NCBI GenBank assembly: GCA_963708135.1
Contig: OY970192.1
Location: 800,001-864,000, forward strand
Reading direction: 5' to 3'
DNA: 64,000 bases
Source: an uncultured Gemmatimonadales bacterium
GTDB taxonomy: Bacteria > Gemmatimonadota > Gemmatimonadetes > Longimicrobiales > RSA9
The stretch's first letter is position 1; the number at the start of each line of letters is the position of its first letter. A program made the translations under genes and the position numbers. The notes under the pieces are model-generated. The model was not told the DNA's origin. It searched no databases and saw nothing but the letters and a program-made list of their open reading frames with translations. Below, in pieces: positions 9,213-40,670 of the stretch.

Positions 9213-9710
9213 GATGACGTAGCAGACAGGCTGGGGCGGGGCGCCGCTGCGCGCTCCCGCTTCCGGCCCGTGCACCGGGTCCAGGCCGGGGCAGAGCGCG
9301 CGAAGATGGATCGAAGGGACCCGCGTGGTCCGCTTCCGAGTGTGGCATTCGCGTACCCCGGCCCTGAGCACGCTCAAGTCTCCCATGTGGGGGTGTTGAG
9401 GGCCCTGCGGGGCGCCTCCGAATACCGACGCGATCGAGCTACGCGTGCTCATGTGGCCGGGGTGCGATTTGACAACAGGAGTCATCCTTTCAGGCGAGAG
9501 GAGCACCGCGTGCTCGCCGGGATGGTGGCCGGGCGTGGATCCGAGGCAGCACGTGAGGGGAGCGATGTCTCCGCCTCCGTCGAGTCGGCTGATCGCGCCC
9601 GGTCCACTCCCGTTGCTGTGACGCGCGGCTGAGGGGCCGGTGCGGATCCGATAATCTGGTCGAGGCGCACCCCGTGCGGCCTCCAAGGTGGCACTCGATC
9701 GCACCGGCCC
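9213..9710 (+). ncRNA. Putative multi-loop bridge/seek RNA region, unit 0 (4 internal loops)
   Basis: Non-coding region downstream of IS110 gene; stem-c-N12-GAGG..GCCTCC-N12-stem hairpins; conserved GGTGCGATTTGACAAC at 9461-9476; transcribed strand inferred. Confidence 0.7.
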
Positions 9711-9717
9711 ATCTGGG

Positions 9718-10008
9718 TCACTCTGCCAGCAGTTGGACTTCGAGTATCTCGCCGACCCCCGCCGCGGCGGCCGCTGTTCGATCGACGGAGTCGGGGTCCA
9801 CTGAGCCCCAGTTCAGAACTTCAAGGACATCGTACACAACCTCGCGCCCCGGGGAGTGTGGGTCTACAGACAGAATCTTGGCGACGACCACCTGACCATC
9901 GGCAAACCGCATCCGGACCCTCTGGTTTGCCAGCGGGATGAGTTCGGTAGCCTTCATCCTTTGCTCCTGTAGAAGTCGCGAGTACCCGGAGATCACTTCC
10001 ACATCCAT
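9718..10008 (-). CDS. Putative immunity protein (unit 0 cargo); true start may be MKATELI
   Basis: Small ORF immediately downstream of the orphan CT. Confidence 0.6.
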   Translation of the reverse strand: MDVEVISGYSRLLQEQRMKATELIPLANQRVRMRFADGQVVVAKILSVDPHSPGREVVYDVLEVLNWGSVDPDSVDRTAAAAAGVGEILEVQLLAE

Positions 10009-10505
10009 CGTTGGATGAGGAGGTGGACATTCCCACCAGTCAGTCTATTCTCCAAATTTCCGACCAATTCGCCCGCGTTGAAATGGCCCGCCGGCTTGAT
10101 CTGCGGCGCACGATAGACTCGATCTCCCGCGACTCGACCGATCTCGGCGCCCGCTCCACGAGCGGCTCGAATTGCGCGCCCTCCAGCGGTCCATATGCGG
10201 CCTGCGATGGTAGCCTCTAATTCACTACCGAGCCGAACGGTGACGTTTTTGACCGCGCCTGCCGCCGTTTCCAGAGCGCGTCCAACGCGTCCAGCTGCTC
10301 TCGCGACAGGAGGCATAGGGAGCATCGCCGTCATGCAGGAAATCGACTCAGCACACGTTGCGAGCACGCCACCTGCGTAGTTCAGCGCAGCGTTGCCTTC
10401 TCCCGTGGCGAGACGGTGCGCGTACCACTCTGACGTGCCCGCTTCACAGTTGTTGAAGTCATCATCGGCAGGCGGACACGAACCGAAGGGATCCGTGTAA
10501 GACGC
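9993..10505 (-). pseudogene. Orphan Rhs C-terminal toxin (unit 0 cargo, no start codon)
   Basis: Begins ASYTDPFGSCPP..; open to HLLIQRWMWK*. Confidence 0.85.
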
Positions 10506-10815
10506 ACCCCTCTACCGCGATTGCCCCGCCTTCCGGCCGACCCAGCAATTCAGCGATCTTATTCGTCTCAAACAGCGTCCCGTACCGTGACCCTGCAGGT
10601 GCAACCCTGAACCGTATCGCTGGGCTGCCGATCGGCTGAAGCCGGGTGGTCGATTCATCGACGTGCTCGGGATTCGCCTCCAGCCTGGCCGGCGTTACGG
10701 TCAACGGTTCGGCTCCGAGCTCCCCACGGCAGGCCTCGGCCGCCGTCTGACCGCGTTTTCTGTCATCGTCCGGTTCACGGTACGTCCCCGGCTCACCTCA
10801 ACCGGGAGACGCACC

Positions 10816-12048
10816 ATGAGCCACTACAAGAAGCGCCAGAGGGCCCAGCGAGCCGCCGCCGTGGTCGGGATCGACGCCGCAAAGCGCAGGCACGCGATGG
10901 TCGTGCGGCCGCGCGGCGGCGAGGACTCGACGCCGATGTTCTTCGAGGCGACGCGCGCCGGCTTCGGCAAGGCCCTGGAGGAGATCGAGGCCTGCGCCCC
11001 TGACGCCGAGCGGCACGAGATCCTGGTCGGCATCGAGTTCGCCGGGAACTACGGCTTCACGCTGGCGCACCACTTCGCGGCCGAGGGCCTCCAGGTCGTG
11101 AGCGTGCTCGGCTCGCACTCGAAGAAGTGGAAGGAGGTCGTCCACAACCAGAGCCTGAAGAGCGACCCGGCCGACGCCGTCACGATCACCGACCTGGCCA
11201 GCCAGGGGCACTTCGTGATCTTCCCCTTCCTCGAGCAGGTATTTGCAGACCTGCGCTACCTCGTGAGCCTGCGCGAGCGCCTGACGAAGCTCCGCACGGG
11301 CGCCATCACGCGCCTCAAGGACGTGCTCCAGGTCGTGTGGCCGGAGTTCGACCGCCGCTTCGGCAACTTCAACCACAAGACGCCGATCGCGCCCCTGGAC
11401 GCCTTCCCGGGGCCCGACGCGCTCCTGAAGGCGTCCAAGCGCCGCATCATGACCGTGCTCCGGAAGGCGAGCCGCGGCCACCTCGGCGAGAAGGCCTATC
11501 AGGAGCTCCGGCACATGGCGGAGCACACCGTCGCCCTTCCGGGGGCCCAGGGCGTGCTCAAGGACGAGATCGCCCTCCAGCTCGAGCTCCTCGCCACCTA
11601 CGAGCGGCAGATGGCCGAGGTCGAGCGGCTCATGGCGGAGTCTGTGTCGAGCGTGCCTGAGGGCGAGGCACTCCTTACGATCCCGAAGCTCGGGGCCGTC
11701 ACCGCGGCGACGTTCCTCGGCTCGATCGGCGATCCGCAGGTCTACGAGTCCAGCCGTCAGGCACTCCGCGTCGGCGGACTGTCGCTCGTCGTCCACGAGA
11801 GCGGCAACCGGCACGGGCGTCCGCGGCTCTCCAAGCGGGGCCGCCCCGAGCTCCGGCGCCAGATGTACATGTTCGCGCTCCGGAGCGTCTCCAACCGGTC
11901 CCTCTACCACGACTACTACCGCCGCATGCTGGAGCGGAACGGTGGCGAGAAGATCCCCGCGCTGGTCGCCGTGATGCGCAAGGCGGCGCGCCTCATGTTC
12001 AGCGTCGCGAAGGACCGGCGCGCCTTCACCATGGAACCACCGCGGTAG
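10816..12048 (+). CDS. IS110-family (DEDD) recombinase, apparently intact
   Basis: GIDAAK, GIEFAGNY, KSDPADA (D-E-D-D); IPKLGAVTAA, HESG serine, SKRGRPELR. Confidence 0.95.
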   Translation: MSHYKKRQRAQRAAAVVGIDAAKRRHAMVVRPRGGEDSTPMFFEATRAGFGKALEEIEACAPDAERHEILVGIEFAGNYGFTLAHHFAAEGLQVVSVLGSHSKKWKEVVHNQSLKSDPADAVTITDLASQGHFVIFPFLEQVFADLRYLVSLRERLTKLRTGAITRLKDVLQVVWPEFDRRFGNFNHKTPIAPLDAFPGPDALLKASKRRIMTVLRKASRGHLGEKAYQELRHMAEHTVALPGAQGVLKDEIALQLELLATYERQMAEVERLMAESVSSVPEGEALLTIPKLGAVTAATFLGSIGDPQVYESSRQALRVGGLSLVVHESGNRHGRPRLSKRGRPELRRQMYMFALRSVSNRSLYHDYYRRMLERNGGEKIPALVAVMRKAARLMFSVAKDRRAFTMEPPR

Positions 12049-12604
12049 CTCGGGGGAATAAACGGTGTGAGAGGGTCGGCTGGCGCGGACGCGCGCCGGC
12101 CCTCTCCGACCCAAGTGCACCCGACGCACGCCGGGGAGTTGCGCCCGAGAATGGATCGAGGAGGCCGCCCTTCGAGCGGCGGCCGGCCTCCGAATGCGGC
12201 ACACGCGCACCCCGGCCGGGAAGGCGCCCCAGTCTCCGAGATAGGGGTGTCGAGGGCTCCCAGGAACGCTGGCAGAACCGCGTTCCCGAGCGCCTCCTAC
12301 TTTGACCGCGATCGAGCTACGCGTCTTCATGCGGCCGGGGTGCGATCTGACAACACGGTTGCGGTTTCGCCCGGCGGGAGCGGCTCGCCGGGCGCGGACA
12401 CTCGCCTGGACGCGGATCCCGAGCGGCACTCGAGGGGAGCACAGCCTCTGCCTCCGAACAGGCCCCAGATCGCGTCCCGGCACCCTCTCCCCCGCCCCTG
12501 TGCGAGCAGACGGGGAAGAGGTGCACGAGGGGCCGGTGCGGATCCGATAATCCGGTCGAGGCGTCATCCGACGGCCTCCGAAGAGGCACTCGATCGCACC
12601 GGGC
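12049..12604 (+). ncRNA. Putative multi-loop bridge RNA region, unit 1 (4 loops)
   Basis: Same hairpin/internal-loop architecture; guide GATAATCCGG at 12546-12555. Confidence 0.75.
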
Positions 12605-12892
12605 CTACTCCGAAATCCCAAAGCGTGCTCTCGCATCCTCGGGAGCCACATTGATGAGCAACGGCGGTCCTCCACCGGGTAATTCGCTGTGGGGATAAGT
12701 CAGTACCCAAAAGCGTCCGTCCTTGGCGCGATACATGACGCTCCACCCATCATCTGAGCGCGCCACTTCCGTGATTTCGTGCGTAGTGATGATACGCTCA
12801 ATTCGACGGCATTCGTCGTCAGGGACAAGGCGGCCGTCCTGATCAACCCAAGTTCCGGTGATGACCGTTTCGTCTGGCTGAATGAGAGTCAT
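12605..12892 (-). CDS. Immunity protein, Imm27-like
   Basis: GW..Y....DGRFW.L.YP.SE..GGGPP.L motif recalled for Imm27; overlaps CT stop. Confidence 0.75.
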   Translation of the reverse strand: MTLIQPDETVITGTWVDQDGRLVPDDECRRIERIITTHEITEVARSDDGWSVMYRAKDGRFWVLTYPHSELPGGGPPLLINVAPEDARARFGISE

Positions 12893-13404
12893 GGGATCTT
12901 CCTTATCAGGGCCTCAAACGGAATCGTGCCGTTGGGGATTACGAATTCACGAGCACCACCTGAAGTAAGTCCACGCCCGACGAAGCCCGGTGTCTTTCGG
13001 CCGACGGGAGAAGCAATCGCCTCGATGGCCGAACTCGGGAATTCAATGATGTTGAAGCCGAAGGGGCTTTCTGGGATCCCCAACCGAGTGGCAATCTCCT
13101 TCGACCCCATCCCCGCTATATCCTCGGCGGCCGTGACAAACACATCTTCGGCGCCAGCTCGCCCCAACGTTGCTGGAACAATATTCCCGGGAACGACGCG
13201 AGCAAGGACACTTGGGACAGCATTGGCTACTTCCCGACCGAGCAAGCGCCTTCCGAAGTCCGCAATGCCGCCTGCAATTCCGCCCGCGAGAACAGCGATG
13301 GGATCGAAAAATCCGGCGCTTTCAAGGCCTGGTTCGCCGCCGGGACACCCCGTATGCCACTCAGTCTCTGGGGGACACAATCCGAAGGGATCTGTATATA
13401 CCGG
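12889..13404 (-). pseudogene. Orphan Rhs CT, Ntox10-like (unit 1 cargo)
   Basis: PVYTDPFGLCPPETEWH..; C-terminal GLTSGGAREFVIPN; family call from memory. Confidence 0.75.
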
Positions 13405-13574: not shown

Positions 13575-15011
13575 GGAGGTATTTTCAGAAGTTGTGGATC
13601 GCGTGACTTGATGGGGTGAAAAAAGGCGGCGTATCCTTCCGCGTTGGTTCGTTCACCGAAACGCGAAGCCCCGCTGGCCGGCGGGGGGAAGGAGACGCCA
13701 CCCATGCTGAAGCTATTCATGGACGCCCCTGCGGAGCAAGCGGGGGGGCTGGAGTTCACGCTGGACGAGCTCGCGCGTGAGGGCGCGCGGCGGATGCTGG
13801 CGGTGGCGCTGGAGGCGGAGGTGGCCGCCTACGTGGAGCGCTACCGGGGCGAGCGGGACGAGGCGGGACACGCGCTCGTGGTGCGCAACGGGAAGGCGCG
13901 GCCGCGACGCGTGACGCTCGGGGCCGGGACGGTGGAGGTCGCCGCGCCGCGGGTGAATGACCGACGGGTGGTGGAGGGGACGCGCCAGCGCTTCACGAGC
14001 GAGATCCTGCCGCCGTACATGCGGCGCAGTCCCAAGGTGGCGGAGGTGCTGCCGGTGCTCTATTTGCGCGGGCTCTCGACCGGGGACTTTCAGGAGGCGC
14101 TGCGGGCGCTGCTCGGAGCGGAGGCCACAGCGGGGCTGTCGCCGAGCGTCATCAGCCGCCTGACTGGAGCTTGGGAGGAGGAGTACCGGGCCTGGCGGCG
14201 GCGCGATCTCTCGGACCGAGACTACGTCTACGTCTGGGTGGACGGGGTGCATTTCCGGATCCGGCTGGAAGAGGACCGCCTGTGTGCGCTCGTCGTGATC
14301 GGAGTGCGCCCGGACGGGACCAAGGAGCTCGTGGCCATCGAGGACGGCTACCGCGAATCGACGGAGAGCTGGGCGGCGCTCCTGCGCGATCTGACGAGGC
14401 GCGGCATGCGCCCTCCCGTCCTGGCCGTAGGGGATGGCGCGCTCGGCTTCTGGGCGGCCGCGCGCGACGTCTGGCCCGACACGCGGGAGCAGCGCTGCTG
14501 GGTGCACCGGCTGGCCAACGTGCTGGACAAGCTGCCCAAGCGGCTCCAGCCGAAAGCGAAAGCGCATCTGCGCGAGATCATGAACGCGGAGAGCCGCGCG
14601 GCGGCCCAGGAGGAGATTGAGCGCTTCCGCGAAGAGTACGGCGCCAAGTACCCCAAGGCGGTGGCGTCCCTCGTGCGCGACCAGGACCAGCTCCTGGCCT
14701 TCTTCGACTTCCCGGCCGAACACTGGAAGCATCTGCGCACCACCAATCCGGTGGAGAGCACCTTCGCGACCGTGCGGCTCCGGCAGCGGGTGACGAAGGG
14801 AGCGGGCTCGAGAACGCGCGGGCTGGTGTTCGCCTACAAGCTCCTGGACATGGCCAGCCAGCGGTGGCGGCGCCTCGACGGCGCCCACCTCCTCCCCCTC
14901 GTTCGGGCGGAGGTCCAGTTCACCGACGGCATCATGCAAGAGAGGGAGGATCAAGAAGGGCGGAGGAGCGCCGCCTGATCACCCCAATCCACAACATTTG
15001 ACAATAGCTCT
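13575..15011 (+). mobile_element. IS256-family insertion sequence with 8-bp TSD CCGCCCGG
   Basis: Imperfect TIRs GAGGTATTTTCAGAAGTTGTGGAT / GAGCTATTGTCAAATGTTGTGGAT; TSD at 13567-13574 and 15012-15019. Confidence 0.9.
13704..14978 (+). CDS. IS256-family transposase
   Basis: RNG, LYLRGLSTGD, YVWVDG, GDGALG, QRCWVH, RTTNPVES. Confidence 0.95.
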   Translation: MLKLFMDAPAEQAGGLEFTLDELAREGARRMLAVALEAEVAAYVERYRGERDEAGHALVVRNGKARPRRVTLGAGTVEVAAPRVNDRRVVEGTRQRFTSEILPPYMRRSPKVAEVLPVLYLRGLSTGDFQEALRALLGAEATAGLSPSVISRLTGAWEEEYRAWRRRDLSDRDYVYVWVDGVHFRIRLEEDRLCALVVIGVRPDGTKELVAIEDGYRESTESWAALLRDLTRRGMRPPVLAVGDGALGFWAAARDVWPDTREQRCWVHRLANVLDKLPKRLQPKAKAHLREIMNAESRAAAQEEIERFREEYGAKYPKAVASLVRDQDQLLAFFDFPAEHWKHLRTTNPVESTFATVRLRQRVTKGAGSRTRGLVFAYKLLDMASQRWRRLDGAHLLPLVRAEVQFTDGIMQEREDQEGRRSAA

Positions 15012-15162
15012 CCGCCCGGATTCCGTCACCACTCCGGCGGTGATACGCTTCCGGGTTCGGGCTCAAACCCGGCAGGCGCCGCTCACAACGCCATTCAGCC
15101 CGATTCCGCCATCGGTGCGGCCCACGGTACCGCTCTGGTCCACTTCAACCAGGAGCGAGACC

Positions 15163-16398
15163 ATGAGCCGTTTCGAGAAGCGCCGCCGGGCCCAGCGCGC
15201 CGCCGCCGTCGCCGGAGTGGACGCGGGCAAGAGGAAGCACGCGATCGCCGTCCGGCCGCGCGGCGGCGAGGACAGCACGCCGCTCGAGTTCCAGACGACG
15301 CGGGAGGGCTTCGAGATCGCCGTCCACGCGATCCTCGACAACGCGCCCGACGCGCGGCCGGAGGACGTGCTGGTCGGCATCGAGTTCGCCGGCAACTACG
15401 GCTTCACCTTCGCGCACTTCCTGCGCGACCGCGGCTTCCAGGTCGTGAACGTGCTCGGCGCGCACAGCAAGCGCTGGAAGGAGGTCGTCCACAACCAGGG
15501 GCTGAAGAGCGACGCGAAGGACGCGCTCACGATCACCGACATGGTGGCGCAGGGCGCCTTCGTCGGCTTCCCGTTCCTCGAGCAGGTCTACGCCGACCTG
15601 CGCTACCTGGTCAGCATGCGCGAGCGCCTGACGAAGCTCCGGAGCGCGACGATCGCGCGGCTGAAGGACGTGCTCCAGGTCGTCTGGCCGGAGTTCGAGC
15701 GGCGCTTCAGCAACTTTAGCAAGAAGACGCCGATCGCGATCCTGGAGGCGTTCCCCGGGCCGGATGCGTTCCTGCGCGCACCGAAGCGGCGCGTGCTGAA
15801 GGTGATCCGGGAGGCGAGCCGGGGTCATCTGGGCGCGGCCGCCTACGAGCACCTGCGGTGCGCGGCCGAGGACACCGTGGCGCTCCCCGGCGCGCAGGGC
15901 GTGCTTGCGCAGGAGGTCGGCCTCCAGCTCGATCTCTTGGCCTCCTACGAGCGCCAGATCGCCGAGGTCGACCGCCTCATGGCCGAGCGGCTCGTGGACG
16001 CGCCCGAGGCCGAGGCGCTCCTGTCCGTCCCGAAGCTCGGCGCCGTCACGGCCGCCGTGTTCCTGGGCTCGATCGGCGACCCGCGGGCCTACGACTCCAG
16101 CCGGCAGGCGCTCAAGGTCGGCGGCCTCGGGCTCGTCGTGAGCGAGAGCGGCGCCCAGCGCGGCCGGCCGCGGCTCCCCAAGCGCGGCCGGCCCGAGCTC
16201 CGGCGCCAGATGTACATGTTCGCGGTGCGGAGCGTGAGCCGGGGCGGCCTGTTCCGGGCGGAATACGAGCGGGCGCTCGAGCGCAATCCGAACACGCCGA
16301 AGAAGAAGGTGCTGGTCGCGCTCGCGCGGAAGGCGACGCGGCTCATGTTCGCGCTCGCGAAGGAGCGGCGGCTGTACACGATGGAACCGCCGCGGTAG
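15163..16398 (+). CDS. IS110-family recombinase (unit 2)
   Basis: GVDAGK, GIEFAGNY, KSDAKDA, SESG; PKRG instead of SKRG. Confidence 0.95.
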   Translation: MSRFEKRRRAQRAAAVAGVDAGKRKHAIAVRPRGGEDSTPLEFQTTREGFEIAVHAILDNAPDARPEDVLVGIEFAGNYGFTFAHFLRDRGFQVVNVLGAHSKRWKEVVHNQGLKSDAKDALTITDMVAQGAFVGFPFLEQVYADLRYLVSMRERLTKLRSATIARLKDVLQVVWPEFERRFSNFSKKTPIAILEAFPGPDAFLRAPKRRVLKVIREASRGHLGAAAYEHLRCAAEDTVALPGAQGVLAQEVGLQLDLLASYERQIAEVDRLMAERLVDAPEAEALLSVPKLGAVTAAVFLGSIGDPRAYDSSRQALKVGGLGLVVSESGAQRGRPRLPKRGRPELRRQMYMFAVRSVSRGGLFRAEYERALERNPNTPKKKVLVALARKATRLMFALAKERRLYTMEPPR

Positions 16399-17045
16399 GT
16401 TGGGGGAATCAACACCATGGGAGGGCCGGCTGGCGCGGTGCGCGCCGGCCCTCCTACAGTGCACCAGACGCAGGCCGGGGGATGGAGCAGAAGAATCCAT
16501 CGAAGGGGCCGTCTCGCACGAACGTGAGGCCTGCTTCCCAAGGTCGGACCCGCTCCCCCTGACCCAGAGTTCGCCACAGTCTCCGAGGAAGGCGTGTCGA
16601 GGGCCACGCGCGGCAGACGCCGCCACGGTGCCTCCGAGGACTTGAGGGTATCGAGCTACGCGATCTCGAGTGGTCTGGGTGCGATTTGACAACTCAGCGC
16701 TTGCCTTCGCCGTCGCGGCGTCGAGCCGGCCGCGACGGAACGGGTGGCGTGTGCCCGGCGCGGATCCGACATCCAGCCTGAGGCGGCCCAGCCGGCCTCC
16801 CATGATGGACCTGATCGCGTCGGGCACCGTCCTCCTCATGGGCATCGGCCCGGCATGGACCCGATAATCCGGATGAAGGGCGCTCTGCGGCCTCCCATGT
16901 GGGACTCGGTCGTGCCGGGCCCCGCCTCCCCGCCGGGCTGGCCGACGGGGAGGTGAGCCGAACCGGGGCCTGTGTGGATCGGGGGATCCGACAGAGGCGC
17001 GAACATCGCGGCCTCGGAAAGTGACACTTGATCGCATCGGCCTCT
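16399..17045 (+). ncRNA. Putative multi-loop bridge RNA region, unit 2 (5 loops)
   Basis: Two-loop core closed by GCACCAGAC/GTCTGGGTGC stem plus three stand-alone hairpins. Confidence 0.75.
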
Positions 17046-17055
17046 TCGCTGGTCG

Positions 17056-18884: not shown

Positions 18885-19847
18885 CTAAAGAGAGGAGGGG
18901 TGGGTGGGCCGTGTGAGATGGGCCGGGTGAGTGCGGGCGTGCACCTGCTTGAGGCGGGCGATGGAGACGCGGGTGTAGAGCTGGGTGGTGGAGAGCTGGG
19001 CATGACCGAGCATCTCCTGGATGTCGCGGATGTCGGCGCCGCCCTCGAGCATGAGGGTGGCCATGGTGTGGCGAAAGAGGTGGCAGGAGCCGCTCTTGCC
19101 GAGGTCAGCCGCGGCCACGTAGCGGCGCACCAGCTCAGAGAGACGATTGGCCCGGAGCCGCCGTCCGCGGCGGGAGAGAAAGAGGAGTCCGTGATCGGGC
19201 GGCACGAGCAGGTGCGGCCGCACATCCGAGAGGTAGCGCTGGGCCCAGGCGAGCGCCCGCTCCCCGACGGGCACCAGCCGGTCGCGTCGTCCCTTGCCCT
19301 CGCGCACGAAGAGACTGCCGCGGGCAGGATCAATGTCCACCAGGCGGAGCCGGATGAGTTCGGTGCGACGGATCCCGGTCGAGTAGAGCACCTCGAGGAG
19401 CGTGCGGTCCCGCACCCCGAGCAGGGTGAACAGATCCGGCTGCGCAAGCACCCGCTCCGCTTCGTCGCTGGTGAGCACGGCGCCGGGCAGGTGATGGGCT
19501 CGCCTGGGCAGCTCGAGGTCGGCCGCGGGGTTGTAGGGCAGGCGGTGGGTCCGCACGAGCCACTTCAACAGGCCCTTGATGGCGATGAGCTTCTGCGCCT
19601 GTGCGCCCCAGCCCAGCGGCTGTCCGTTCTTCTGCCGCTGCTGGAAGAGCGCCGTGCGATAGCGCTCGAGGAGCGGCAGCGAGAGATCCTGCACGGTCTC
19701 GACGCCGCGCTCCTCGCACCAGGTGCGGAAGTGGTTCAGGTAGCTTTTGCGGCTGCGCACCGTGTGCGGCGAGTAGGCCGCGGCCGCAAGCGCGGCCAGG
19801 TGCAGCGCGATGAGCGTGGCGAGTTCGCTCTCCGCGGCCGCACTCAT
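18885..19847 (-). CDS. XerC/D-like tyrosine recombinase
   Basis: TGIRRTE, GKG, HLFRH, LGH, TQLYT catalytic set. Confidence 0.95.
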   Translation of the reverse strand: MSAAAESELATLIALHLAALAAAAYSPHTVRSRKSYLNHFRTWCEERGVETVQDLSLPLLERYRTALFQQRQKNGQPLGWGAQAQKLIAIKGLLKWLVRTHRLPYNPAADLELPRRAHHLPGAVLTSDEAERVLAQPDLFTLLGVRDRTLLEVLYSTGIRRTELIRLRLVDIDPARGSLFVREGKGRRDRLVPVGERALAWAQRYLSDVRPHLLVPPDHGLLFLSRRGRRLRANRLSELVRRYVAAADLGKSGSCHLFRHTMATLMLEGGADIRDIQEMLGHAQLSTTQLYTRVSIARLKQVHARTHPAHLTRPTHPSSL

Positions 19848-23624: not shown

Positions 23625-24074
23625 TCATTCAGAGTTCAGCGGAGACTGACTGGCAACTTGCGTCGATTCCGAGAATTCCCATGCCTTAAAAGTAATCTCG
23701 ATCCACGAGTAGCCCTCGCGGCGAAATGACGCTTTGTAGCTGGGCCCGGTCAGCCGTGAACGAACCAAGGCTCCAGCATCTTCGACTCGAAGGCAAGCGA
23801 TTTCGCCGAAGCCCCAACCAAGTGATGCCTCCTTCTGCATCACTGAGTCAGAGAGTTCGTTGATAACGTGCAGTTCACTCACGCCGCAGAAGCGGATTGA
23901 CACAATACGCCGGTCAGCGTATTGGGTCCGAATCGTTCCATCCTCCTGCCACACGAAGTCAATGTCGATGCTGAGGGACGCGCCCCAGTTCAGCCACTGG
24001 ACGCCGACAACAACACACTCCTCGAAATCGCGGTACGCGTGAAGCTCTGCTCTCAATACAGGCAATCCGCTCAT
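23625..24074 (-). CDS. Putative immunity protein (integrative-element cargo)
   Basis: Overlaps CT stop (ATGA); low GC. Confidence 0.75.
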   Translation of the reverse strand: MSGLPVLRAELHAYRDFEECVVVGVQWLNWGASLSIDIDFVWQEDGTIRTQYADRRIVSIRFCGVSELHVINELSDSVMQKEASLGWGFGEIACLRVEDAGALVRSRLTGPSYKASFRREGYSWIEITFKAWEFSESTQVASQSPLNSE

Positions 24075-27044
24075 CGATTCCAGATGTTAAGATGCGTGGT
24101 CGCGTTGGGACCAGGGTTACCCAGCGCGTCGAGATAGTTGCGAGCTGCATTCATGATGCGCAGTTGCCAACCATTTTCCCGCCGCATTAAGCGAACTTCT
24201 TCGCCCGTTCCATTCGTGAAAAGGTAGCCACTCTTATTCTCCGTCAGTCCCATCACAAACCCGTTCTCTTTCAGAATTGCGCGAATTCCAATGATCGACT
24301 CATCCGCAAGTCCGCCTCCCTCCGAGAACAGCGCGCGTAGCCCGGCGCTCGCTCCCCGTAGCCCCCGCCCGACGGCACCACCACCCACCGTGAATGCCGC
24401 CATTGCGAAGCCGCGTCCGGCGTGACCACTCCCGATATCGAAGCCAGCATCAAACGCTGCGGTGATCGGATTGACATCGTTGATCGCATTCAACCCAGCT
24501 GCGGCATTGAGCACCACGCCGCCCAGGCCACCGCCACGCTGCGCTCCCCAATTTGCCGCTTTCTGCAAGCAATCTTCAATCGGCGGGCACAATCCGAACG
24601 GGTCGGTATAAGACGCGGGGTTGTTGCCCGCATACGCATAGAGGTTAAGCCCGCCGGCAAATCCGATGGGGTCTTCCTGCGTGAACCTCCCCAATCTGGC
24701 GTCGTAGTAGCGGTTGCGGAAGAAGGCTCCGGTCTCCTGGTTCGAGTCGCCGTTGCGGGCGGGGGCGAAGCTGTAGCTTTCGCGGATGGCACCCGACTGC
24801 GAGCCCCAGGTACTCCACGCCGGGAGCTCGTTTCCGTTCGTGTCCGTGATGCAGTTCTCGCCCTGCGGGCCCTGGAAGCTGAACAGTCGTTCGCGATGCG
24901 TGATGAAATATGCGCGCTTGTCGTTCAGGCTGCCGAGGGGACACGCAGCGTTGCCGTACATCATCAGCGGGTCGTCGAGCCCCGGCCCGTCCACGAACTC
25001 GACCGTCGAGTGCTCGATCACGTTCTGACCATCGTAGAAGGTCTCCGCGCCGGAGTGGGCATAAGCGCCGCGGATCCGCCGGCCCAGGCCGTCGTAGCGG
25101 AAGAAGGCGGTATCGGGGTGAGTGCCGGAGAGCTGGCCGGCGGCGCTGTAGTAGCGGTGCCAGGTGTAGGCGGTCCCGGCGTAGGTGCCCTGCTCGAGCG
25201 TCTCGTTGCCGTTCGCGTCGTAGCTGAAGTCGACGCTCTCCGGACCGGAGACGCCGCTGTAGTAGCGGGTCCGGCGGGTCACCTCGTTCGAGAGGCCGTC
25301 GAGCTGGAAGAGCACGCTGTCGGCGCACAGGCTGCCGCGCACGCACAGGTACTCCTTCACGCGGTTGCCGGCCGCGTCGTGGACCAGGCTGTCCATGGAG
25401 GCGTAGGTGCCGTTCTTCATCTGGTCCGTGTAGCGGATCTTCCCCCGGTGGTCGTAGGCCCAGTGGCTGACCCACGTCCCTCCGTTCGTCTCCCGGCCCC
25501 GGTTCACGACCGAGTCCGGCCGGCCCGCGGCGTCGTAGGCGAAGGTAAGGTCCACGGGCGTGTAGCCCGTCGTCGCATTGACCGAGACGACGCGCGCGAG
25601 CTGCCCGTCCTTCGTGTAGCCGTAGCTCGTCTTCGTGCCGTTGGGCAGCGAGACCGTGTCGCGCCGGCCGAGCGCGTCGTAATGGAAGGAGATCACCTCG
25701 CCCGCCGGCGTCTGGATCTGGCTGACGAGCCCGCCCGGGCCGAAGGTCGAGGTGTAGGTGCCCTTCGGCGTGGTCCGCGTGTGCCGGCCCGCCCACTGGT
25801 AGGCCGACGTGTACGTCCGCGTCGTTCCCGACCACTTGTGGAGCTGGACGCTCGAGGCGAGGGTGCCCTCGCGGTTGAAGGTGCGCGTGACCTTCGAGCT
25901 GTCCTCGTCGAGCACGGTCGGGTTGCCGGCGGCGTCGTACTGGAGGTCGATCGTGGTGCCGCGCACGCCGAGGACACCGCCCTGGTAGGTGCTCGAGAGA
26001 ATCCGCTGCTTCGGGCGGTCGTCGCCGTCGTAGTGGATCGTGACGGTGCTGCCGTCGCGGTTCGTGCCCAGGGTGAGGTTCCCGGCGAGGTCGTAGGCGT
26101 CGAGCTGGGTGGCCCCCTTGGCGTCGACCATTGCCGTGTCCTCGCCCAGGGCGTTGTACTGCCAGATGCGGGCGAGCAGGCGGGGGTCTGACGCGCCAAT
26201 GCGGTTACCATCCGCATCGAACGTGAAGCGGCTGGGGCGTATGAGGCCGTGGTCGTACTGGTCGACCTCGGTCCGGTTGCCGAGAAGGTCGTGCACGAAG
26301 GTCGTGCTGTCACCGGCGGGGTCGCTCACGCGGCGCAACAGCCCGTAGGCGTCGTAGCCGTAGCTGGTGGTGTCGCCGCCGGGCGTGGTGCTCGAGAGCA
26401 GGTTGCCGGTGCCGGAATCGTCGTTGCCGAGCATCGTGGTGAGATCCTGCACGCCGGCGCCGTAGACCGGCACGGAGTGCTCGGTCGCGCTCGCCACCTG
26501 GCCGCGGCTGTTGTACGTGAAGCTGGTCTCGTGCCCGCGCGGGTCCACGACGTTGTCCAGCGTGCCGTCCGTGGCGTTGTAGGTGAAGGTGGTGGTGTCC
26601 CGGTGCGTCCCGTCGCGCGGCTCGATCAGCTTCCACGGCTTGTCAGGCGCCGCCGTCGAATACCGATAGGTCACCGAATCCGCGCCGGCGCTCGACGTGA
26701 GGTCCGCGGCGTAGGCGACCCGGCCGGAGCCGTCGTAGGCGGTCGTGGTGGTGCGGCCGTTCGGCCAGTCGACCTCCTTCGTGAGCAGGGGGAAGCTGGC
26801 GTCGTGCTTCAGGACGGTTGTATTGCCCACGGCGTCGACAACCGTGTCCGGCGCGCCGAAGCGGTCCAGGTAGAACTTCGTGATCTGCAGGGTGTCCGTG
26901 CGCGGCCCGTGCACCTCGAAGTCGGCGCTCGCGGCCGCGTAGCTGGCGTTGAGGCCGGTGGCGGCGGTGGCAAGGCCGCGGCTCGCGAGAGGAGTAAACG
27001 TCGTGACCGGCGTTCCGGCCGTGACCTGCGGCAGGGTGTCGGCC
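24071..27044 (-). pseudogene. 5'-truncated Rhs paralog fused in frame to the integrative-element CT
   Basis: YD repeats, RYYD..GRFTQEDPIG..NNPASYTDPFG, CT ending YLDALGNPGPNATTHLNIWNR; Rhs homology stops at 27044. Confidence 0.9.
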
Positions 27045-27293
27045 TCCCACGATGGACCTGATCGCGTCGGGCACGCCCCTCCTTCGCACTCATGGCCATC
27101 GACCCGGCATGGACCCGATAATCCGGGCGAGGCGCGCTCTGCGGCCTCCCATGTGGGACTCGGTCGTGCCGGGGCCCCACCTCCCCGCCGGGATGACCGA
27201 CGGGGAGGTGAGCGGAACGGGGCCGGTGTGGATCCGATAATCCGGTCGAGGGGTCTATGACCGCCTCCAATCTCGGACTCGATCGCACCGGCT
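27040..27293 (+). ncRNA. Remnant bridge-RNA-like region (2.5 loops) of a unit whose recombinase was deleted
   Basis: Homologous to 16793-17045 and 40047-40292. Confidence 0.75.
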
Positions 27294-27596
27294 CTACTCG
27301 CTTGGTTGGTTCCGCAGCAAGTCCCAGAGGCGTTCGCGAAGATGATCGAGGGTGGCATTCGCAACCGCTTCATCATCAACTGAATGGCCGTTTGCGCGGC
27401 TAATCCAAAGATCGGTGAAGCTGCCCATGCCTCCGAACAGTGCGCGGGCGTCATCGCAAATGTCCGGGCAATTTAGTTTTGATCTATGCTGGTTCAATAT
27501 TGAATCAACCATCGAAGCCCACCCGGTTTCGTTGTGTCTACGTAAAAACTGCTCAATATCCTTGAGCACAGCTTCAACGTCCGCGTGTGCCGCCAT
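27294..27596 (-). CDS. Putative immunity protein (GGMGSF.D motif)
   Basis: GGAGG RBS; directly downstream of CT. Confidence 0.75.
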   Translation of the reverse strand: MAAHADVEAVLKDIEQFLRRHNETGWASMVDSILNQHRSKLNCPDICDDARALFGGMGSFTDLWISRANGHSVDDEAVANATLDHLRERLWDLLRNQPSE

Positions 27597-29066: not shown

Positions 29067-30029
29067 CTAAAGAGAGGAGGGGTGGGTGGGCCGTGTGAGA
29101 TGGGCCGGGTGAGTGCGGGCGTGCACCTGCTTGAGGCGGGCGATGGAGACGCGGGTGTAGAGCTGGGTGGTGGAGAGCTGGGCATGACCGAGCATCTCCT
29201 GGATGTCGCGGATGTCGGCGCCGCCCTCGAGCATGAGGGTGGCCATGGTGTGGCGAAAGAGGTGGCAGGAGCCGCTCTTGCCGAGGTCAGCCGCGGCCAC
29301 GTAGCGGCGCACCAGCTCAGAGAGACGATTGGCCCGGAGCCGCCGTCCGCGGCGGGAGAGAAAGAGGAGTCCGTGATCGGGCGGCACGAGCAGGTGCGGC
29401 CGCACATCCGAGAGGTAGCGCTGGGCCCAGGCGAGCGCCCGCTCCCCGACGGGCACCAGCCGGTCGCGTCGTCCCTTGCCCTCGCGCACGAAGAGACTGC
29501 CGCGGGCAGGATCGATGTCCACCAGGCGGAGCCGGATGAGTTCGGTGCGACGGATCCCGGTCGAGTAGAGCACCTCGAGGAGCGTGCGGTCCCGCACCCC
29601 GAGCAGGGTTGACAGATCCGGCTGCGCAAGCACCCGCTCCGCTTCGTCGCTGGTGAGCACGGCGCCGGGCAGGTGATGGGCTCGCCTGGGCAGCTCGAGG
29701 TCGGCCGCGGGGTTGTAGGGCAGGCGGTGGGTCCGCACGAGCCACTTCAACAGGCCCTTGATGGCGATGAGCTTCTGCGCCTGTGCGCCCCAGCCCAGCG
29801 GCTGTCCGTTCTTCTGCCGCTGCTGGAAGAGCGCCGTGCGATAGCGCTCGAGGAGCGGCAGCGAGAGATCCTGCACGGTCTCGACGCCGCGCTCCTCGCA
29901 CCAGGTGCGGAAGTGGTTCAGGTAGCTTTTGCGGCTGCGCACCGTGTGCGGCGAGTAGGCCGCGGCCGCAAGCGCGGCCAGGTGCAGCGCGATGAGCGTG
30001 GCGAGTTCGCTCTCCGCGGCCGCACTCAT
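29067..30029 (-). CDS. XerC/D-like tyrosine recombinase (copy 2)
   Basis: One substitution vs copy 1 (DLF to DLS). Confidence 0.95.
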   Translation of the reverse strand: MSAAAESELATLIALHLAALAAAAYSPHTVRSRKSYLNHFRTWCEERGVETVQDLSLPLLERYRTALFQQRQKNGQPLGWGAQAQKLIAIKGLLKWLVRTHRLPYNPAADLELPRRAHHLPGAVLTSDEAERVLAQPDLSTLLGVRDRTLLEVLYSTGIRRTELIRLRLVDIDPARGSLFVREGKGRRDRLVPVGERALAWAQRYLSDVRPHLLVPPDHGLLFLSRRGRRLRANRLSELVRRYVAAADLGKSGSCHLFRHTMATLMLEGGADIRDIQEMLGHAQLSTTQLYTRVSIARLKQVHARTHPAHLTRPTHPSSL

Positions 30030-33806: not shown

Positions 33807-34256
33807 TCATTCAGAGTTCAGCGGAGACTGACTGGCAACTTGCGTCGATTCCGAGAATTCCCATGCCTTAAAAGTAATCTCGATCCACGAGTAGCCCTCG
33901 CGGCGAAATGACGCTTTGTAGCTGGGCCCGGTCAGCCGTGAACGAACCAAGGCTCCAGCATCTTCGACTCGAAGGCAAGCGATTTCGCCGAAGCCCCAAC
34001 CAAGTGATGCCTCCTTCTGCATCACTGAGTCAGAGAGTTCGTTGATAACGTGCAGTTCACTCACGCCGCAGAAGCGGATTGACACAATACGCCGGTCAGC
34101 GTATTGGGTCCGAATCGTTCCATCCTCCTGCCACACGAAGTCAATGTCGATGCTGAGGGACGCGCCCCAGTTCAGCCACTGGACGCCGACAACAACACAC
34201 TCCTCGAAATCGCGGTACGCGTGAAGCTCTGCTCTCAATACAGGCAATCCGCTCAT
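33807..34256 (-). CDS. Putative immunity protein (copy 2)
   Basis: Same protein as 23625-24074. Confidence 0.75.
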   Translation of the reverse strand: MSGLPVLRAELHAYRDFEECVVVGVQWLNWGASLSIDIDFVWQEDGTIRTQYADRRIVSIRFCGVSELHVINELSDSVMQKEASLGWGFGEIACLRVEDAGALVRSRLTGPSYKASFRREGYSWIEITFKAWEFSESTQVASQSPLNSE

Positions 34257-36207
34257 CGATTCCAGATGTTAAGATGCGTGGTCGCGTTGGGACCAGGGTT
34301 ACCCAGCGCGTCGAGATAGTTGCGAGCTGCATTCATGATGCGCAGTTGCCAACCATTTTCCCGCCGCATTAAGCGAACTTCTTCGCCCGTTCCATTCGTG
34401 AAAAGGTAGCCACTCTTATTCTCCGTCAGTCCCATCACAAACCCGTTCTCTTTCAGAATTGCGCGAATTCCAATGATCGACTCATCCGCAAGTCCGCCTC
34501 CCTCCGAGAACAGCGCGCGTAGCCCGGCGCTCGCTCCCCGTAGCCCCCGCCCGACGGCACCACCACCCACCGTGAATGCCGCCATTGCGAAGCCGCGTCC
34601 GGCGTGACCACTCCCGATATCGAAGCCAGCATCAAACGCTGCGGTGATCGGATTGACATCGTTGATCGCATTCAACCCAGCTGCGGCATTGAGCACCACG
34701 CCGCCCAGGCCACCGCCACGCTGCGCTCCCCAATTTGCCGCTTTCTGCAAGCAATCTTCAATCGGCGGGCACAATCCGAACGGGTCGGTATAAGACGCGG
34801 GGTTGTTGCCCGCATACGCATAGAGGTTAAGCCCGCCGGCAAATCCGATGGGGTCTTCCTGCGTGAACCTCCCCAATCTGGCGTCGTAGTAGCGGTTGCG
34901 GAAGAAGGCTCCGGTCTCCTGGTTCGAGTCGCCGTTGCGGGCGGGGGCGAAGCTGTAGCTTTCGCGGATGGCACCCGACTGCGAGCCCCAGGTACTCCAC
35001 GCCGGGAGCTCGTTTCCGTTCGTGTCCGTGATGCAGTTCTCGCCCTGCGGGCCCTGGAAGCTGAACAGTCGTTCGCGATGCGTGATGAAATATGCGCGCT
35101 TGTCGTTCAGGCTGCCGAGGGGACACGCAGCGTTGCCGTACATCATCAGCGGGTCGTCGAGCCCCGGCCCGTCCACGAACTCGACCGTCGAGTGCTCGAT
35201 CACGTTCTGACCATCGTAGAAGGTCTCCGCGCCGGAGTGGGCATAAGCGCCGCGGATCCGCCGGCCCAGGCCGTCGTAGCGGAAGAAGGCGGTATCGGGG
35301 TGAGTGCCGGAGAGCTGGCCGGCGGCGCTGTAGTAGCGGTGCCAGGTGTAGGCGGTCCCGGCGTAGGTGCCCTGCTCGAGCGTCTCGTTGCCGTTCGCGT
35401 CGTAGCTGAAGTCGACGCTCTCCGGACCGGAGACGCCGCTGTAGTAGCGGGTCCGGCGGGTCACCTCGTTCGAGAGGCCGTCGAGCTGGAAGAGCACGCT
35501 GTCGGCGCACAGGCTGCCGCGCACGCACAGGTACTCTTTCACGCGGTTGCCGGCCGCGTCGTAGACCATGCTGTCGGTCGAGGACGTCCCTCCAGGGTGG
35601 CTCTGACTCGTATAGCGGATGCGCCCGCTCCCGTCGTAGGCCCAGCGGTCCACCCAGGTCGCGTTATTGGTCTCGTTGCCGCGGTTGACGACCGAATCAG
35701 GCCGCCCAGCGGCGTCGTAGGCGAAGCTCAGGTCCACGGCGGTGTCACCGCTCGTGGCGTTGACGGAGATGACGCGCGCGATCTGCCCGTCTTTCGTGTA
35801 ACCGTAGCTCGTTTTCGTGGTGTTGGGCAGCCAGACCGTGTCGCGCCGCCCGAGCGCGTCGTAGTGGAACGAGATCATCTCGCCAGCGGGCGTCTGGATC
35901 TGGGAGACGAGCCCGCCCGGCCCGAGGGTGTAGGTGTACGTCCCCTTCGGCGTGCTCAGCGTATGGCGGCCCGCCCACTGATAGGCCGAGCTGTAGGTGC
36001 GCTGCGTGCCGGACCACTTGTGGAGCTGCGTGCTTGAGGCGAGGGTGCCTTCCTTGTTGAAGACCCGCGTGACCTGCGAGCTGTCCTCATCGAGCATGGT
36101 GACGTTACCGGCCGCGTCATACTGGAGGTTGATCGTCGTGCCGACCACGCCGAGGACGCCATTCTGGTAGGTGGATGAGAGGACGCGCTGCTTCGGGCGA
36201 TTCACTC
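34253..36207 (-). pseudogene. 5'-truncated Rhs (near-identical to main Rhs core) fused to the integrative-element CT
   Basis: 34865-36207 matches ~41228-42570. Confidence 0.9.
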
Positions 36208-36697
36208 AGGACGAGGTACGTCTCCTCCTCGAGCTGCTGGCGATGTACGACCGGCAGATCGCGGCCGTGGAGGAAGCGATGGTCTTCGCCCTCCGTCGGG
36301 CCCCGGAGGCGAAGGCGCTGATGTCGATCCCCAAGCTCGGCGCGGTCACCGCGGCTGTCTTCCTGGGTTCGATCGGCGATCCGAGGGCGTACGAGTCGAG
36401 CCGGCAGGCGCTCCGCGTGGGTGGCCTCTCATTGGTCGTGCAGGAGAGCGGGCTGCTCCGCGGCAAGCCGCGCCTCAGCAAGCGGGGCCGGCCCGAGATG
36501 CGACGGCAGGCGTACATGTTCGCGGCCGCAGCGTGATGAAGGGTGGGCTCTACCGGGAGGCGTTCGACCGCGCCCTGGCCGAGAACCCGCAGAAGCCGAA
36601 GAAGAAGATCCTGGTGGCCCTGGCGCGGCGCGCCACGAAGCTCATGTTCAGCGTCGCGCGGGACCGGAGGCTGTACACGCCGGATGGCCCGAAGTAG
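36208..36697 (+). pseudogene. IS110 recombinase 3' fragment (unit 3), frameshifted
   Basis: DEVRLLLELL..IPKLGAVTAA..QESG..SKRGRP; frame break near 36530; then KPKKKILVALARRATKLMF. Confidence 0.9.
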
Positions 36698-37218
36698 GAT
36701 TCCGGCAGGTGAAAGAGCGGAAGGGCTGCGGCATCCTGCCGAGCCCTCCCGCGAGCACCAGACGCAGGCTGGAGAGTGGAGCCGGCAATCCATCGAAGGA
36801 GTTGCAGAAGCGCTCGGCGCCGCAGCTCGCTTCCGAATGCTGGAACGCTCCCTCCGGCCCAGAGCCCGCTCAAGTCTCCGAGGAAGGCGTGTCGAGGACC
36901 CTCCGGGGTGCCTCCAAGGAACTGAGGGTATCGAGCTACGCGAGCCCGAGCGGTCTGGGTGCGATTTGACAACTCCGTATACTACCTGCCGAGACCCCGA
37001 CCGGGCGGTCGCGGCACCAGTGGCGCGTGCCCGGCGTGGACCCGCCATGTCCCTTGAGGCGGCGTTGCCGGCCTCCGATGGTGGACTCGGTCACGTCGGG
37101 CAGCGCGCTCTTTCACGTCAAACACCCACCGACAGCGCTGCCCGGCATGGGTCCGACAATCCGGTTGAGGCGCGTCCTGCGGCCTCCGATACCGGACTCG
37201 ATCATGCCGGGCAGCTTC
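36698..37218 (+). ncRNA. Putative multi-loop bridge RNA region, unit 3 (4 loops)
   Basis: Same architecture; guides GACAATCCGG / GATACCGGAC in the last hairpin. Confidence 0.75.
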
Positions 37219-38125: not shown

Positions 38126-38440
38126 ACGCCTCTAACCCAATGCGCCCCGATTCGGCCTCCGATCAGCCTACCTCCGACGCCACCTCCCGCCGTCTCAATC
38201 AGCCCTCCTGACACCCTCCCGAACAGCGAAACCCTTCACCATACCACCCGCAGCTCCACCGCCTCAGGCGGGGTCGACTGCCTTCCATTCACCCGGATTC
38301 CGCGCCCGATCCTGGCGGTGATACGGTTCCGGGTTCCGCCTCCGTCCCGGCGGCCCCGGCTCAGAGCGCCATAGAGCACGATTCCGCCATCGGTGCGGCC
38401 CACGGTACCGCTCTGGTCCACTTCAACCAGGAGCGAGACC

Positions 38441-39652: not shown

Positions 39653-40292
39653 GTTGGGGGAATCAACACCATGGGAGGGCCGGCTGGCGCGGTGCGCGCC
39701 GGCCCTCCTACAGTGCACCAGACGCAGGCCGGGGGATGGAGCAGAAGAATCCATCGAAGGGGCCGTCTCGCACGAACGTGAGGCCTGCTTCCCAAGGTCG
39801 GACCCGCTCCCCCTGACCCAGAGTTCGCCACAGTCTCCGAGGAAGGCGTGTCGAGGGCCACGCGCGGCAGACGCCGCCACGGTGCCTCCGAGGACTTGAG
39901 GGTATCGAGCTACGCGATCTCGAGTGGTCTGGGTGCGATTTGACAACTCAGCGCTTGCCTTCGCCGTCGCGGCGTCGAGCCGGCCGCGACGGAACGGGTG
40001 GCGTGTGCCCGGCGCGGATCCGACATCCAGCCTGAGGCGGCCCAGCCGGTCTCCCATGATGGACCTGATCGCGTCGGGTACGCTCTTCCTCATGGGCATC
40101 GGCGCCGGCATGGATCCGAGAACCCGGACGAGGCGCGTTCTGCGGCCTCCCATGTGGGACTCGGTCGTGCCGGGCCGCACCTCCCCGCCGGGCTGGCCAA
40201 CGGGGAGGTGAGCGGAACGGGGCCGGTGTGGATCCGATAATCCGGTCGAGGGGTCACGGACCGCCTCCAACATCGGACTCGATCGCACCGGC
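39653..40292 (+). ncRNA. Putative multi-loop bridge RNA region, unit 4 (5 loops)
   Basis: Loops 1-3 carry the same guides as unit 2; loops 4-5 differ; GATAATCCGG at 40236-40245. Confidence 0.75.
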
Positions 40293-40670
40293 CTATTTCT
40301 TTCGCCGCATCGATTCCTCTGTTTGGCTACAGACCGCGGTCATCGCTGGCCCCATGTACGACCGGGCAGTTTTCATCCAGTCCGAATTGTCGGTTAGCCT
40401 CTCGCAAACGCTGAATGCGGCAATCTCCTGCACCTTCGGATCCGGATGGGCGGCCAGTATTTCGAGGGAGTCGAAGACTCTCCGAATCTCGGCCCCGTCA
40501 TTCCGCTCGATCGCGGCGATAAGATGCGGGGTGAGCAGATCACCATAGATGATGTGAGGGCCGGGACGTTCAGTGCCCCACCATTCCAGTTCTTTTTCGT
40601 ACTTTTCCCTCAACTCTGGTATGCTGGTGATCAAGTGATCCACAACAGTCTCGTATTTGATCTCTGTCAT
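40293..40670 (-). CDS. Cognate immunity protein of the full-length Rhs
   Basis: Start overlaps Rhs stop (TGATG). Confidence 0.8.
   Translation of the reverse strand: MTEIKYETVVDHLITSIPELREKYEKELEWWGTERPGPHIIYGDLLTPHLIAAIERNDGAEIRRVFDSLEILAAHPDPKVQEIAAFSVCERLTDNSDWMKTARSYMGPAMTAVCSQTEESMRRKK

Follow-up and report, generated by a model that had tools for sequence, protein, structure and literature searches.

Among the closest described systems are the bridge-RNA and seekRNA elements of the IS110 and IS1111 groups (IS621; ISEc11, ISPa11 and ISKpn4), which pair a recombinase of DEDD/RuvC-like and Tnp domains with a structured non-coding RNA whose loop strands read both DNA strands flanking the crossover. 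In IS1111-type seekRNAs, as far as the available part of the account extends, the 5' segment is complementary to the top strand and the recombinase is 330-350 aa long (Siddiquee et al. 2024, PMC11187229). Expanded IS110 loci bearing cargo, with passenger genes and tandem expansion of the locus, are described in the accessible portion of a preprint by Hu et al. (bioRxiv 10.64898/2026.08.14.744561), and ISPpu9, of the IS110 family, is portrayed in the corresponding part of its report as having a small-RNA module downstream and as forming several alternative circles (PMC12288879).

The gain of new C-terminal toxins by Rhs proteins, and the building of arrays of orphan toxins, is a long-standing question to which the usual answer is homologous recombination. 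Orphan toxin-immunity arrays of Rhs and CDI loci, in which a main rhs gene is followed by promoter-less C-terminal pairs starting near DPxGL, are classically explained by such recombination through the conserved end of the core. Promoter-less cassettes are similarly added at one site beside a fixed expression context in the cassette arrays of integrons, to whose attC sites the IS1111-attC elements home. A full-text literature search returned no paper linking bridge RNA, seekRNA or IS110 with Rhs or polymorphic toxins, and the words "Toxin" and "Rhs" have 0 occurrences in the available text of Hu et al. (bioRxiv 10.64898/2026.08.14.744561), whose supplements might list toxin cargo. The locus described here offers a testable alternative, in which a programmable RNA-guided recombinase would carry the cassette and write it in frame onto the Rhs core. 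If true, this would be a naturally occurring bridge RNA with multiple guides and would give polymorphic toxins an RNA-guided means of diversification; it would also explain how bacteria swap and stockpile Rhs toxins.

An Rhs locus interleaved with IS110-family units

The window, by which we mean the whole stretch of 64,000 nucleotides that was analysed, has a G+C content of 69.5% and contains an Rhs locus on its minus strand, with five IS110-family units interleaved on the plus strand. The recombinase gene is full-length in three of these (10663..12048; 14998..16398, also given as 15163..16398; and 38393..39652) and truncated in two, and all copies of the unit in the genome lie in this one locus. 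RHS repeats, a DPxGL motif preceding a variable C-terminal toxin, and a downstream immunity gene are all present, as is characteristic of Rhs polymorphic toxin loci, and Pfam identifies among the toxin and immunity components Ntox10 with Imm27, DUF7674 and DUF6966. The family of the recombinase is clear from several comparisons: PF01548 and PF02371 are present in three copies, the NCBIfam model NF033542 ("IS110 family RNA-guided transposase") gives 178.6 and 185.1 bits (unit 1 having 185) against a cutoff of 140, and the C-terminal domain matches that of the solved IS621 recombinase (chain 8wt6) with an E-value of 1.5e-9. Counted from a conserved start, the protein is 405-411 aa long and consists of an N-terminal DEDD (RuvC-like) and a C-terminal Tnp domain. 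The features of the locus are as follows.

9377..9445, plus strand: predicted donor loop of unit 0, whose recombinase gene is truncated
9528-9608 and 9635-9714, plus strand: R loops of unit 0
9718..10504, minus strand: cargo of unit 0
10505..10511, plus strand: left end of unit 1, 7/7 bases complementary to the loop 2 5' strand
10663..12048, plus strand: IS110-family RNA-guided recombinase of unit 1 (DEDD_Tnp_IS110 and Transposase_20), likely start 10831
12145..12204, plus strand: loop 1 of unit 1, in the canonical target-loop position; the inner stem covaries
12231..12323, plus strand: predicted donor-binding loop (loop 2) of unit 1, with compensatory pairs in the outer stem and guides matching the left end and the cargo end
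12238-12249 and 12298-12310, plus strand: 5' and 3' guide strands, respectively, of loop 2 of unit 1
12404-12486 and 12531-12609, plus strand: R loops (predicted extra guide loops) of unit 1, matched by the covariance model and with structure covariation
12605..13403, minus strand: cargo of unit 1, comprising an Imm27 immunity gene (12605..12892) and an Ntox10 toxin with DPxG leader (12889..13403; Pfam, frame checked)
13400..13403, plus strand: right end of unit 1, the final four bases of the Ntox10 cassette leader, equal to the loop 2 4-mer at 12305-12308
13403/13404: junction at which the right end of unit 1 meets the left end of unit 2
16578..16662, plus strand: predicted donor loop of unit 2, whose left end is at 13404
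16753-17047, plus strand: R loops of unit 2, whose cargo extends to 17944 and is there fused to an Rhs core fragment
24071..27454 and 34253..36205, minus strand: Rhs fragments
27000..27298, plus strand: three R loops without a recombinase unit, between a DUF6966 immunity gene and an Rhs fragment
36873..36942, plus strand: predicted donor loop of unit 3, whose recombinase gene (36171..36694) is truncated
37029-37217, plus strand: R loops of unit 3, whose cargo extends to 38124
39832..39916, plus strand: predicted donor loop of unit 4, with left end at 38125 and recombinase gene at 38393..39652
40007-40298, plus strand: R loops of unit 4
40293..41160, minus strand: cargo of unit 4, comprising the toxin portion at the C-terminus of the 1708-aa Rhs protein and, at 40293..40670, a DUF7674 immunity gene
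40670..45796, minus strand: main rhs gene, encoding the 1708-aa Rhs protein
41161..45796, minus strand: Rhs core of the main rhs gene (target side; RHS_repeat), whose first 10 plus-strand bases complement R-loop 5' strands

Every junction has an in-frame ...YTDPFGLCP motif. At 17944 and 41160, the latter being the right end of unit 4 and falling within the open rhs frame, the Rhs core reads straight into the cassette (...NPA/SYTDPFGLCP...); the cassettes behind units 0, 1 and 3 have no core attached. RHS repeats also lie past the junction in the related loci L001, L007 and L010. The left ends of units 1, 2 and 4 contain a minus-strand, in-frame TAG (at 10512-10514, 13411-13413 and 38132-38134), three codons before the orphan cassette, closing a frame that would otherwise enter it; the L007-type left end has no such stop.

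Several further rearrangements mark this region. An IS256-like (Mutator family, PF00872) transposase gene at 13644..14978, within the left non-coding part of unit 2, parts the left end of that unit (13404 to ~13600) from its recombinase gene. A direct duplication (17914-28096 and 28096 to ~38280, with a spacing of 10,182 bases) carries genes for a phage-type integrase, a 1025-aa primase/Toprim-helicase-like protein, an HTH protein and a HicA-like protein, bounded on both sides by truncated Rhs core sequence; it looks like an integrative element that was inserted into an Rhs core and then duplicated. Elsewhere in the chromosome, at C1:2795105-2795519, lies a remnant of the same element, in which two recombinase fragments survive along with 60 bases from the start of the 3' non-coding region, these bases being 98% identical to unit 2.

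Loop 2 and the ends of the element

The ~300 non-coding bases 3' of each recombinase gene contain a strong hairpin and two internal loops. Related loci were sought in a scan of one genome per species, yielding 18 loci, and in a metagenome scan yielding 17 more. A DNA profile of the RNA region gave 43 matches, 37 of which were kept as reaching the model end on the plus strand while 6 partial ones were dropped; the resulting set of 37 RNA units (27 sources, 32 unique) includes many relatives, so that all counts overstate the number of independent events. The named sources are mostly Gemmatimonadota MAGs, one being labelled Deltaproteobacteria and one Gammaproteobacteria. The architecture of hairpin, loop 1 and loop 2 is kept in the 37 units from all 27 sources. 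RNAalifold, applied to 26 of 28 unique RNA sequences (two near-duplicates being omitted), recovered the loop 1 inner stem and the loop 2 outer stem, and compensatory changes maintain pairing in 7 of the 19 predicted pairs. Single-sequence folding z-scores (unit 1, -3.5; unit 2, -0.7; R region, -2.1) are not decisive alone, and no Rfam family matched the RNA region at gathering score. The end of the RNA region (12343-12354, 16682-16693 and 39936-39947, as well as in related loci) contains TTGACA, a perfect -35-like hexamer, followed in the L007 group by a CAT(T/C)(G/C)T hexamer 17 bases past it; the site might serve as a promoter directed into the R loops.

The 5' strand of loop 2 is the reverse complement of a short site located ~160-330 bases upstream of each recombinase start (CACCCCT at 10505 in unit 1; ACGCCT at 13405 and 38126 in units 2 and 4), directly left of which the Rhs ...YTDPFG(L) motif, the opening of a toxin cassette, is encoded on the minus strand. 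The correspondence extends over 6 or more contiguous bases in 20 of 21 units, distributed over five hexamer classes, with five of the left ends (those of units 1 and 2, L011, L012 and L013) placed by sequence alignment instead of by pattern. The match in L013 is shifted by one, and 0/20,000 re-pairings equalled the observed agreement.

The 3' strand of the same loop has a different partner. A 4-mer within it equals the final four plus-strand bases of the cassette downstream of the same RNA, at a distance of 1-2.5 kb from loop 2 (the window junctions used being 10504, 13403, 17944, 38124 and 41160). We took as the far end the first reverse-strand ...LG.PD pattern site at least 600 bases past the RNA, plus 11 bases, a rule that was set on the first loci and afterwards applied to all units; the far end of unit 0 was placed by sequence alignment, and in L003 the 11-base rule was retained despite three extra bases before the next left end. 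Among unique units with a findable far end, 22/27 conform, and eight 4-mers are matched (GAGG, ACCG, GACG, GCTA, GAGA, GACA, GAAA and GTTA), against a mean of 3.8 and a maximum of 13 for shuffled pairings, 0/100,000 of which reached 22. The misses comprise L001, L010 and L019b, each by one base, L019a entirely, and L005, whose guide has a 2-base deletion. The left-end class ACGCCT alone is combined with three end 4-mers (GAGG, GAGA and GTTA), each of them matched, and the GTTA and GAAA classes derive solely from loci obtained after the rule was fixed. The same correspondence was found in 5/5 units, all GCTA, of a hold-out genome (G126) identified through the covariance model, in which none of the five is identical to an earlier locus. 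The compensatory changes in both partners support loop 2 as the predicted donor-binding loop.

These results bear directly on a preliminary description of this DNA, which had proposed loop 2 as the donor-binding loop from strings quoted in five units. The strings are present: AGGGGTG at 12243 and AGGCGT at 16590 and 39844 (additionally at 36885) on the left strand, and, read on the plus strand, GACGC at 9427, ACCGC at 12305, and GAGGG at 16644, 36924 and 39898 on the right. The "ends" with which they were compared are minus-strand readings of the left ends CACCCCT (10505) and ACGCCT (13405 and 38126), and the "cargo starts" are likewise minus-strand readings of the last plus-strand bases before each next junction. 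Positions 2-5 agree in 5/5 window units over three 4-mers, as had been claimed, and the covariation of guide with end persists in the enlarged set of homologous units at both the left end (20/21) and the far end (22/27, with 0/100,000 shuffles). Less of the remaining proposal stands. Position 1 was said to match the last base of the unit's own left end; the base there equals the first left-end base of the unit in 15/21 units and differs from it in L002, L007, L008, L009, L011 and L012, so that the base following the 4-mer is not a reliable part of the guide. A crossover "just after position 1" is consequently not supported, and the exact exchange point is not fixed by the sequence because flank and cargo end are homologous.

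A conventional right end would imply a quite different element: a short one, running from the left end to the conserved ...TTGACAAC that closes the RNA region or to the R loops, and homing to the boundaries of Rhs cassettes that are its neighbours, not its cargo. We consider this unlikely. In the loop of which one strand binds the left end, the other strand follows the far side of the cassette in 22/27 units, and in the 14 units where the left flank differs from the far end the guide equals the far end in 11/14 and the flank in 0/14. Nor does this 3' strand follow the ...TTGACAAC end; a right end placed there was rejected, since the sequence is invariant while the 3' strand varies. As the 3' strand tracks the far end of the cassette and never the near flank, the Rhs C-terminal toxin and immunity genes would lie inside the element, in keeping with what the preliminary description had proposed.

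The short-element reading has support as well. Unit 1 and L019b share 91% identity over a stretch that begins a little to the left of the left end and stops where the R loops do, beyond which the cargo is unrelated; units 2 and 4 have identical RNA and different cargo; and every copy in the genome lies in one locus. At the cassette end, conservation between cassettes is limited to ~35-40 bases around the DPxGL codons, and the end of L019b is one base off its guide. The sharing of one backbone by unrelated cargoes implies that cargo is also exchanged by another route, and that a guide can outlive its match. Against this must be set L012, whose right flank is not Rhs. Its flanks (...GAGAAA / CTCACAGCAC...) enclose the cassette and match its own first R loop at the expected register (4/6 on the left and 9/10 on the right), with 7/8 bases of the right flank also matching the 5' strand of loop 1. 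The enclosure of a cassette by non-Rhs flanks that match the unit's own guide loop is the most telling indication that cassette and unit move together.

A joint linking a cargo end to its own left end was found in none of the four sets of assembled contigs. One X2 contig spans 12604 to 13382 with undetermined letters in the interval, a hint that a relative may carry other cargo. In L003 (2805-2845) the three extra bases between cassette end and next left end are CCC, as at the Rhs core start, as if an insertion had occurred three bases further right. At L013 2665, L019 6196 and L045 ~7805 the cassette ends and a third left-end class (GACATCTAT...) follows, which probably belongs to an unsampled relative of the element.

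R loops and the core-cassette junction

Each unit is followed by 1-3 copies of an ~80-base repeat, here termed R loops, and all 72 nhmmer hits have the strand of the recombinase; L020, a unique unit, lacks them since its contig stops at the RNA. Each copy folds into an outer stem and an inner hairpin separated by an internal loop, with the inner-stem motif of loops 1 and 2. Compensatory changes are present in 17/21 predicted pairs, in an alignment of 49/61 unique copies from which 12 copies were removed on visual inspection (one half copy, one poor copy and the rest near-duplicates). From their form and strand, and from the matches that follow, the R loops appear to be additional predicted guide loops.

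Like loop 2, the R loops correspond to DNA through both strands, so that the guide-to-DNA correspondences observed are four. The reverse complement of the R-loop 5' strand matches, in the register of the donor loop, the first ten bases right of the cassette end, which are Rhs core in most loci, and the match follows the core variant present (CCGGATTATC, CCGGGTCGCC, CCGGATCCCC, CCGGGTTGT or TCGGGTTAT). Agreement with the right flank averages 7.7/10 in own pairs, against 6.4 in cross pairs (16 units; permutation p 0.00065). Bases 2-7 of the 3' strand agree with the six bases that end the left flank of the same unit, at a mean of 4.4/6 and a cross mean of 3.2 (19 units); 0/20,000 permutations reached this value, although the p-value is generous, the register having been picked after examples had been viewed. 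This second match is perfect in five units and ends five bases from the outer stem, the same distance as that of the donor-loop 4-mer, and the single base by which L007 (ACGTGA) departs from L008 (ACGCGA) changes in guide and flank alike. In the hold-out genome, the three type-A units, which are members of the L007 class, match at 6/6.

Within the window the agreement is uneven. The second R loop of unit 1 has a 5' strand whose reverse complement is the Rhs core start and a 3' strand that matches its own left flank at 5/6, while the R loops of units 2 and 4 match their own left flanks at just 3-4/6. The second R loop of unit 3 carries ATACCG on its 3' strand, identical to the six bases ending the cassette of unit 1, which suggests later reshuffling. 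In the first R loops of units 0 and 1 (9528-9608 and 12404-12486) the reverse complement of the 5' strand is GTGC.GC..., which matches neither the Rhs core nor any flank seen, and may point at a third kind of target. The set at 27000-27298 is incomplete, its first loop having Rhs-fragment sequence in place of the 5' half, and may be the scar of a deletion or of half-site recombination.

Loop 1, in spite of its canonical position, is not supported as the target loop for the present junctions by permutation, register search or genome scan. Its strands do not match the present flanks (permutation counts of 4721/20,000 on the left and 486/20,000 on the right, the latter driven by L012), an exact-register target search in each locus had L012 as its sole match, and a genome scan for predicted targets returned just 3-mismatch noise. 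A search of four genomes for unoccupied targets of the L012 type gave counts slightly above control. At L036 (G002:C9:~23490), a candidate unoccupied non-Rhs target lies just past a terminator-like hairpin and matches 14/16 guide positions of the first R loop of L011, part of that match having been imposed by the search pattern.

The R repeats might instead be structured DNA sites or terminators, similar to folded single-stranded attC sites or to REP sequences, which owe their likeness to Rhs core and cassette ends to descent from those sequences, with insertion at Rhs proceeding by homologous recombination through the stretch coding for DPxGL. Covariation of pairs is compatible with this, being unable to separate RNA from folded single-stranded DNA; the ~35-40 conserved bases around the DPxGL codons could support homologous exchange; and the R-loop 5' strand opens with GGATC, as does the cassette leader. 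We hold it to be slightly less probable still than the short element. The repeats share not only an inner-stem motif but a strand logic with loops 1 and 2, and their orientation is that of the recombinase in 72/72 hits. The match to the Rhs core is a reverse complement, borne by the loop strand only, at a fixed register and changing with the core variant, and the 3' match keeps the register from the outer stem found in the donor loop. A genome-wide REP family was rejected, since 8/10 matches of a motif scan and 14/14 genome matches of the R-loop covariance model fall in this locus. That model matched 4/151 sampled genomes of the phylum, a patchy distribution as expected for a mobile element. 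Finally, chance, or the hitch-hiking of linked short strings in related copies, is very improbable as a source of all these correspondences, despite the shortness of the matches (4-7 bases) and the close kinship of many units, given that eight 4-mer and five hexamer classes are each matched, that one left-end class occurs with different end 4-mers, all matched, and that shuffled pairings fall far below the observed values.

Proposed exchange of toxins and relation to known systems

To the reading of these units as IS110-family bridge- or seek-RNA elements with cassette cargo, in which loop 2 is the donor loop, the R loops are the target loops and the Rhs toxin is replaced in frame, we give a probability of roughly two in three. 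The mobile unit would be a module of ~2.9-3.1 kb, not the usual insertion sequence of ~1.5-2 kb, and would comprise in order the left end, the recombinase gene, the 3' guide RNA (hairpin, loop 1 and loop 2), 1-3 R loops, the immunity gene and the Rhs C-terminal toxin gene. The last two lie on the strand opposite the recombinase, and the module would end with the codons just before the DPxGL motif of the toxin. The 5' strand of loop 2 would pair with the top strand of the left end and its 3' strand would copy the last four bases of the cassette; because it reads both ends, loop 2 would bind an excised circle across its joined ends. Target binding would fall to the R loops, their 5' strand pairing with the first ~10 plus-strand bases of the Rhs core beside the junction and their 3' strand copying the last ~6 bases of the resident cassette. 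Recombination at the junction of core and cassette would then fuse the incoming toxin in frame to the Rhs core, and would displace the old toxin-immunity pair downstream, where it would remain as an orphan beside the recombinase unit that had delivered its successor. Repeated rounds would generate the observed array, and the locus fits successive insertions at the core/toxin boundary. The sequences show directly the anatomy of the units, the family of the recombinase, the structure covariation of the loops and the four guide-to-DNA correspondences; production of the RNA, formation of the circle, insertion by this route and the base exchanged are matters that we infer from them.

A broader proposition is that these units represent a family of bridge-RNA recombinases specialised in the delivery of Rhs cassettes, with a cargo-spanning donor loop and a separately programmed array of target loops, each naming one junction of cassette end and core, which swap the toxin in frame and archive the old pair; we regard this as only slightly better than an even proposition. 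The field of bridge recombinases would gain an element from nature with a donor end defined across cargo that encodes proteins, together with several target loops naturally arrayed on a single element and a target inside coding sequence, all of which bear on multiplexed or retargetable insertion.

Compared with the IS110 and IS1111 elements, the right end is here located 1-2.5 kb past the RNA, at the first codons of a toxin cassette; 1-3 further guide loops follow the two canonical ones; and the target is a coding junction, with an in-frame fusion as the predicted product. The order of strands that Durrant and colleagues are said to have found in IS621 is the reverse of that in the present loops. 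IS1111-type seekRNAs, to judge from the available part of the account, are alike in lying in a 3' non-coding region and in having a 5' segment complementary to the top strand, and differ in the length of the recombinase, which is 405-411 aa here and not 330-350 aa (PMC11187229). When the first and last 80 bases of units 1 and 4 were compared, using either candidate right end, no subterminal inverted repeat of at least 7 bases was found except one GC-rich 7-mer; neither this lack nor the recombinase length fits IS1111 proper.

The loci of Hu et al. are similar to ours in their passenger genes and tandem expansion; in the accessible portion of that text, however, the cargo is mostly plasmid-derived or related to resistance and there is often one canonical donor match, whereas here both donor guides match, the cargo is one toxin/immunity module and the target loops point at an Rhs junction (bioRxiv 10.64898/2026.08.14.744561). 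ISPpu9 is alike in combining an IS110-family element with a downstream small-RNA module, and unlike in that, within the part of its description available, the small RNA is dispensable and protein-coding cargo is lacking (PMC12288879). Integrons employ a tyrosine integrase and attC sites, and no such integrase is linked to the present units, the only tyrosine recombinases (18885..19847 and 29067..30029) residing in the separate 10-kb repeat with the primase and HicA. With the orphan arrays of Rhs and CDI loci this locus shares its arrangement of a main rhs gene and trailing pairs, with the distinction that its orphans are separated by RNA-guided recombinase units whose guides name the junctions.
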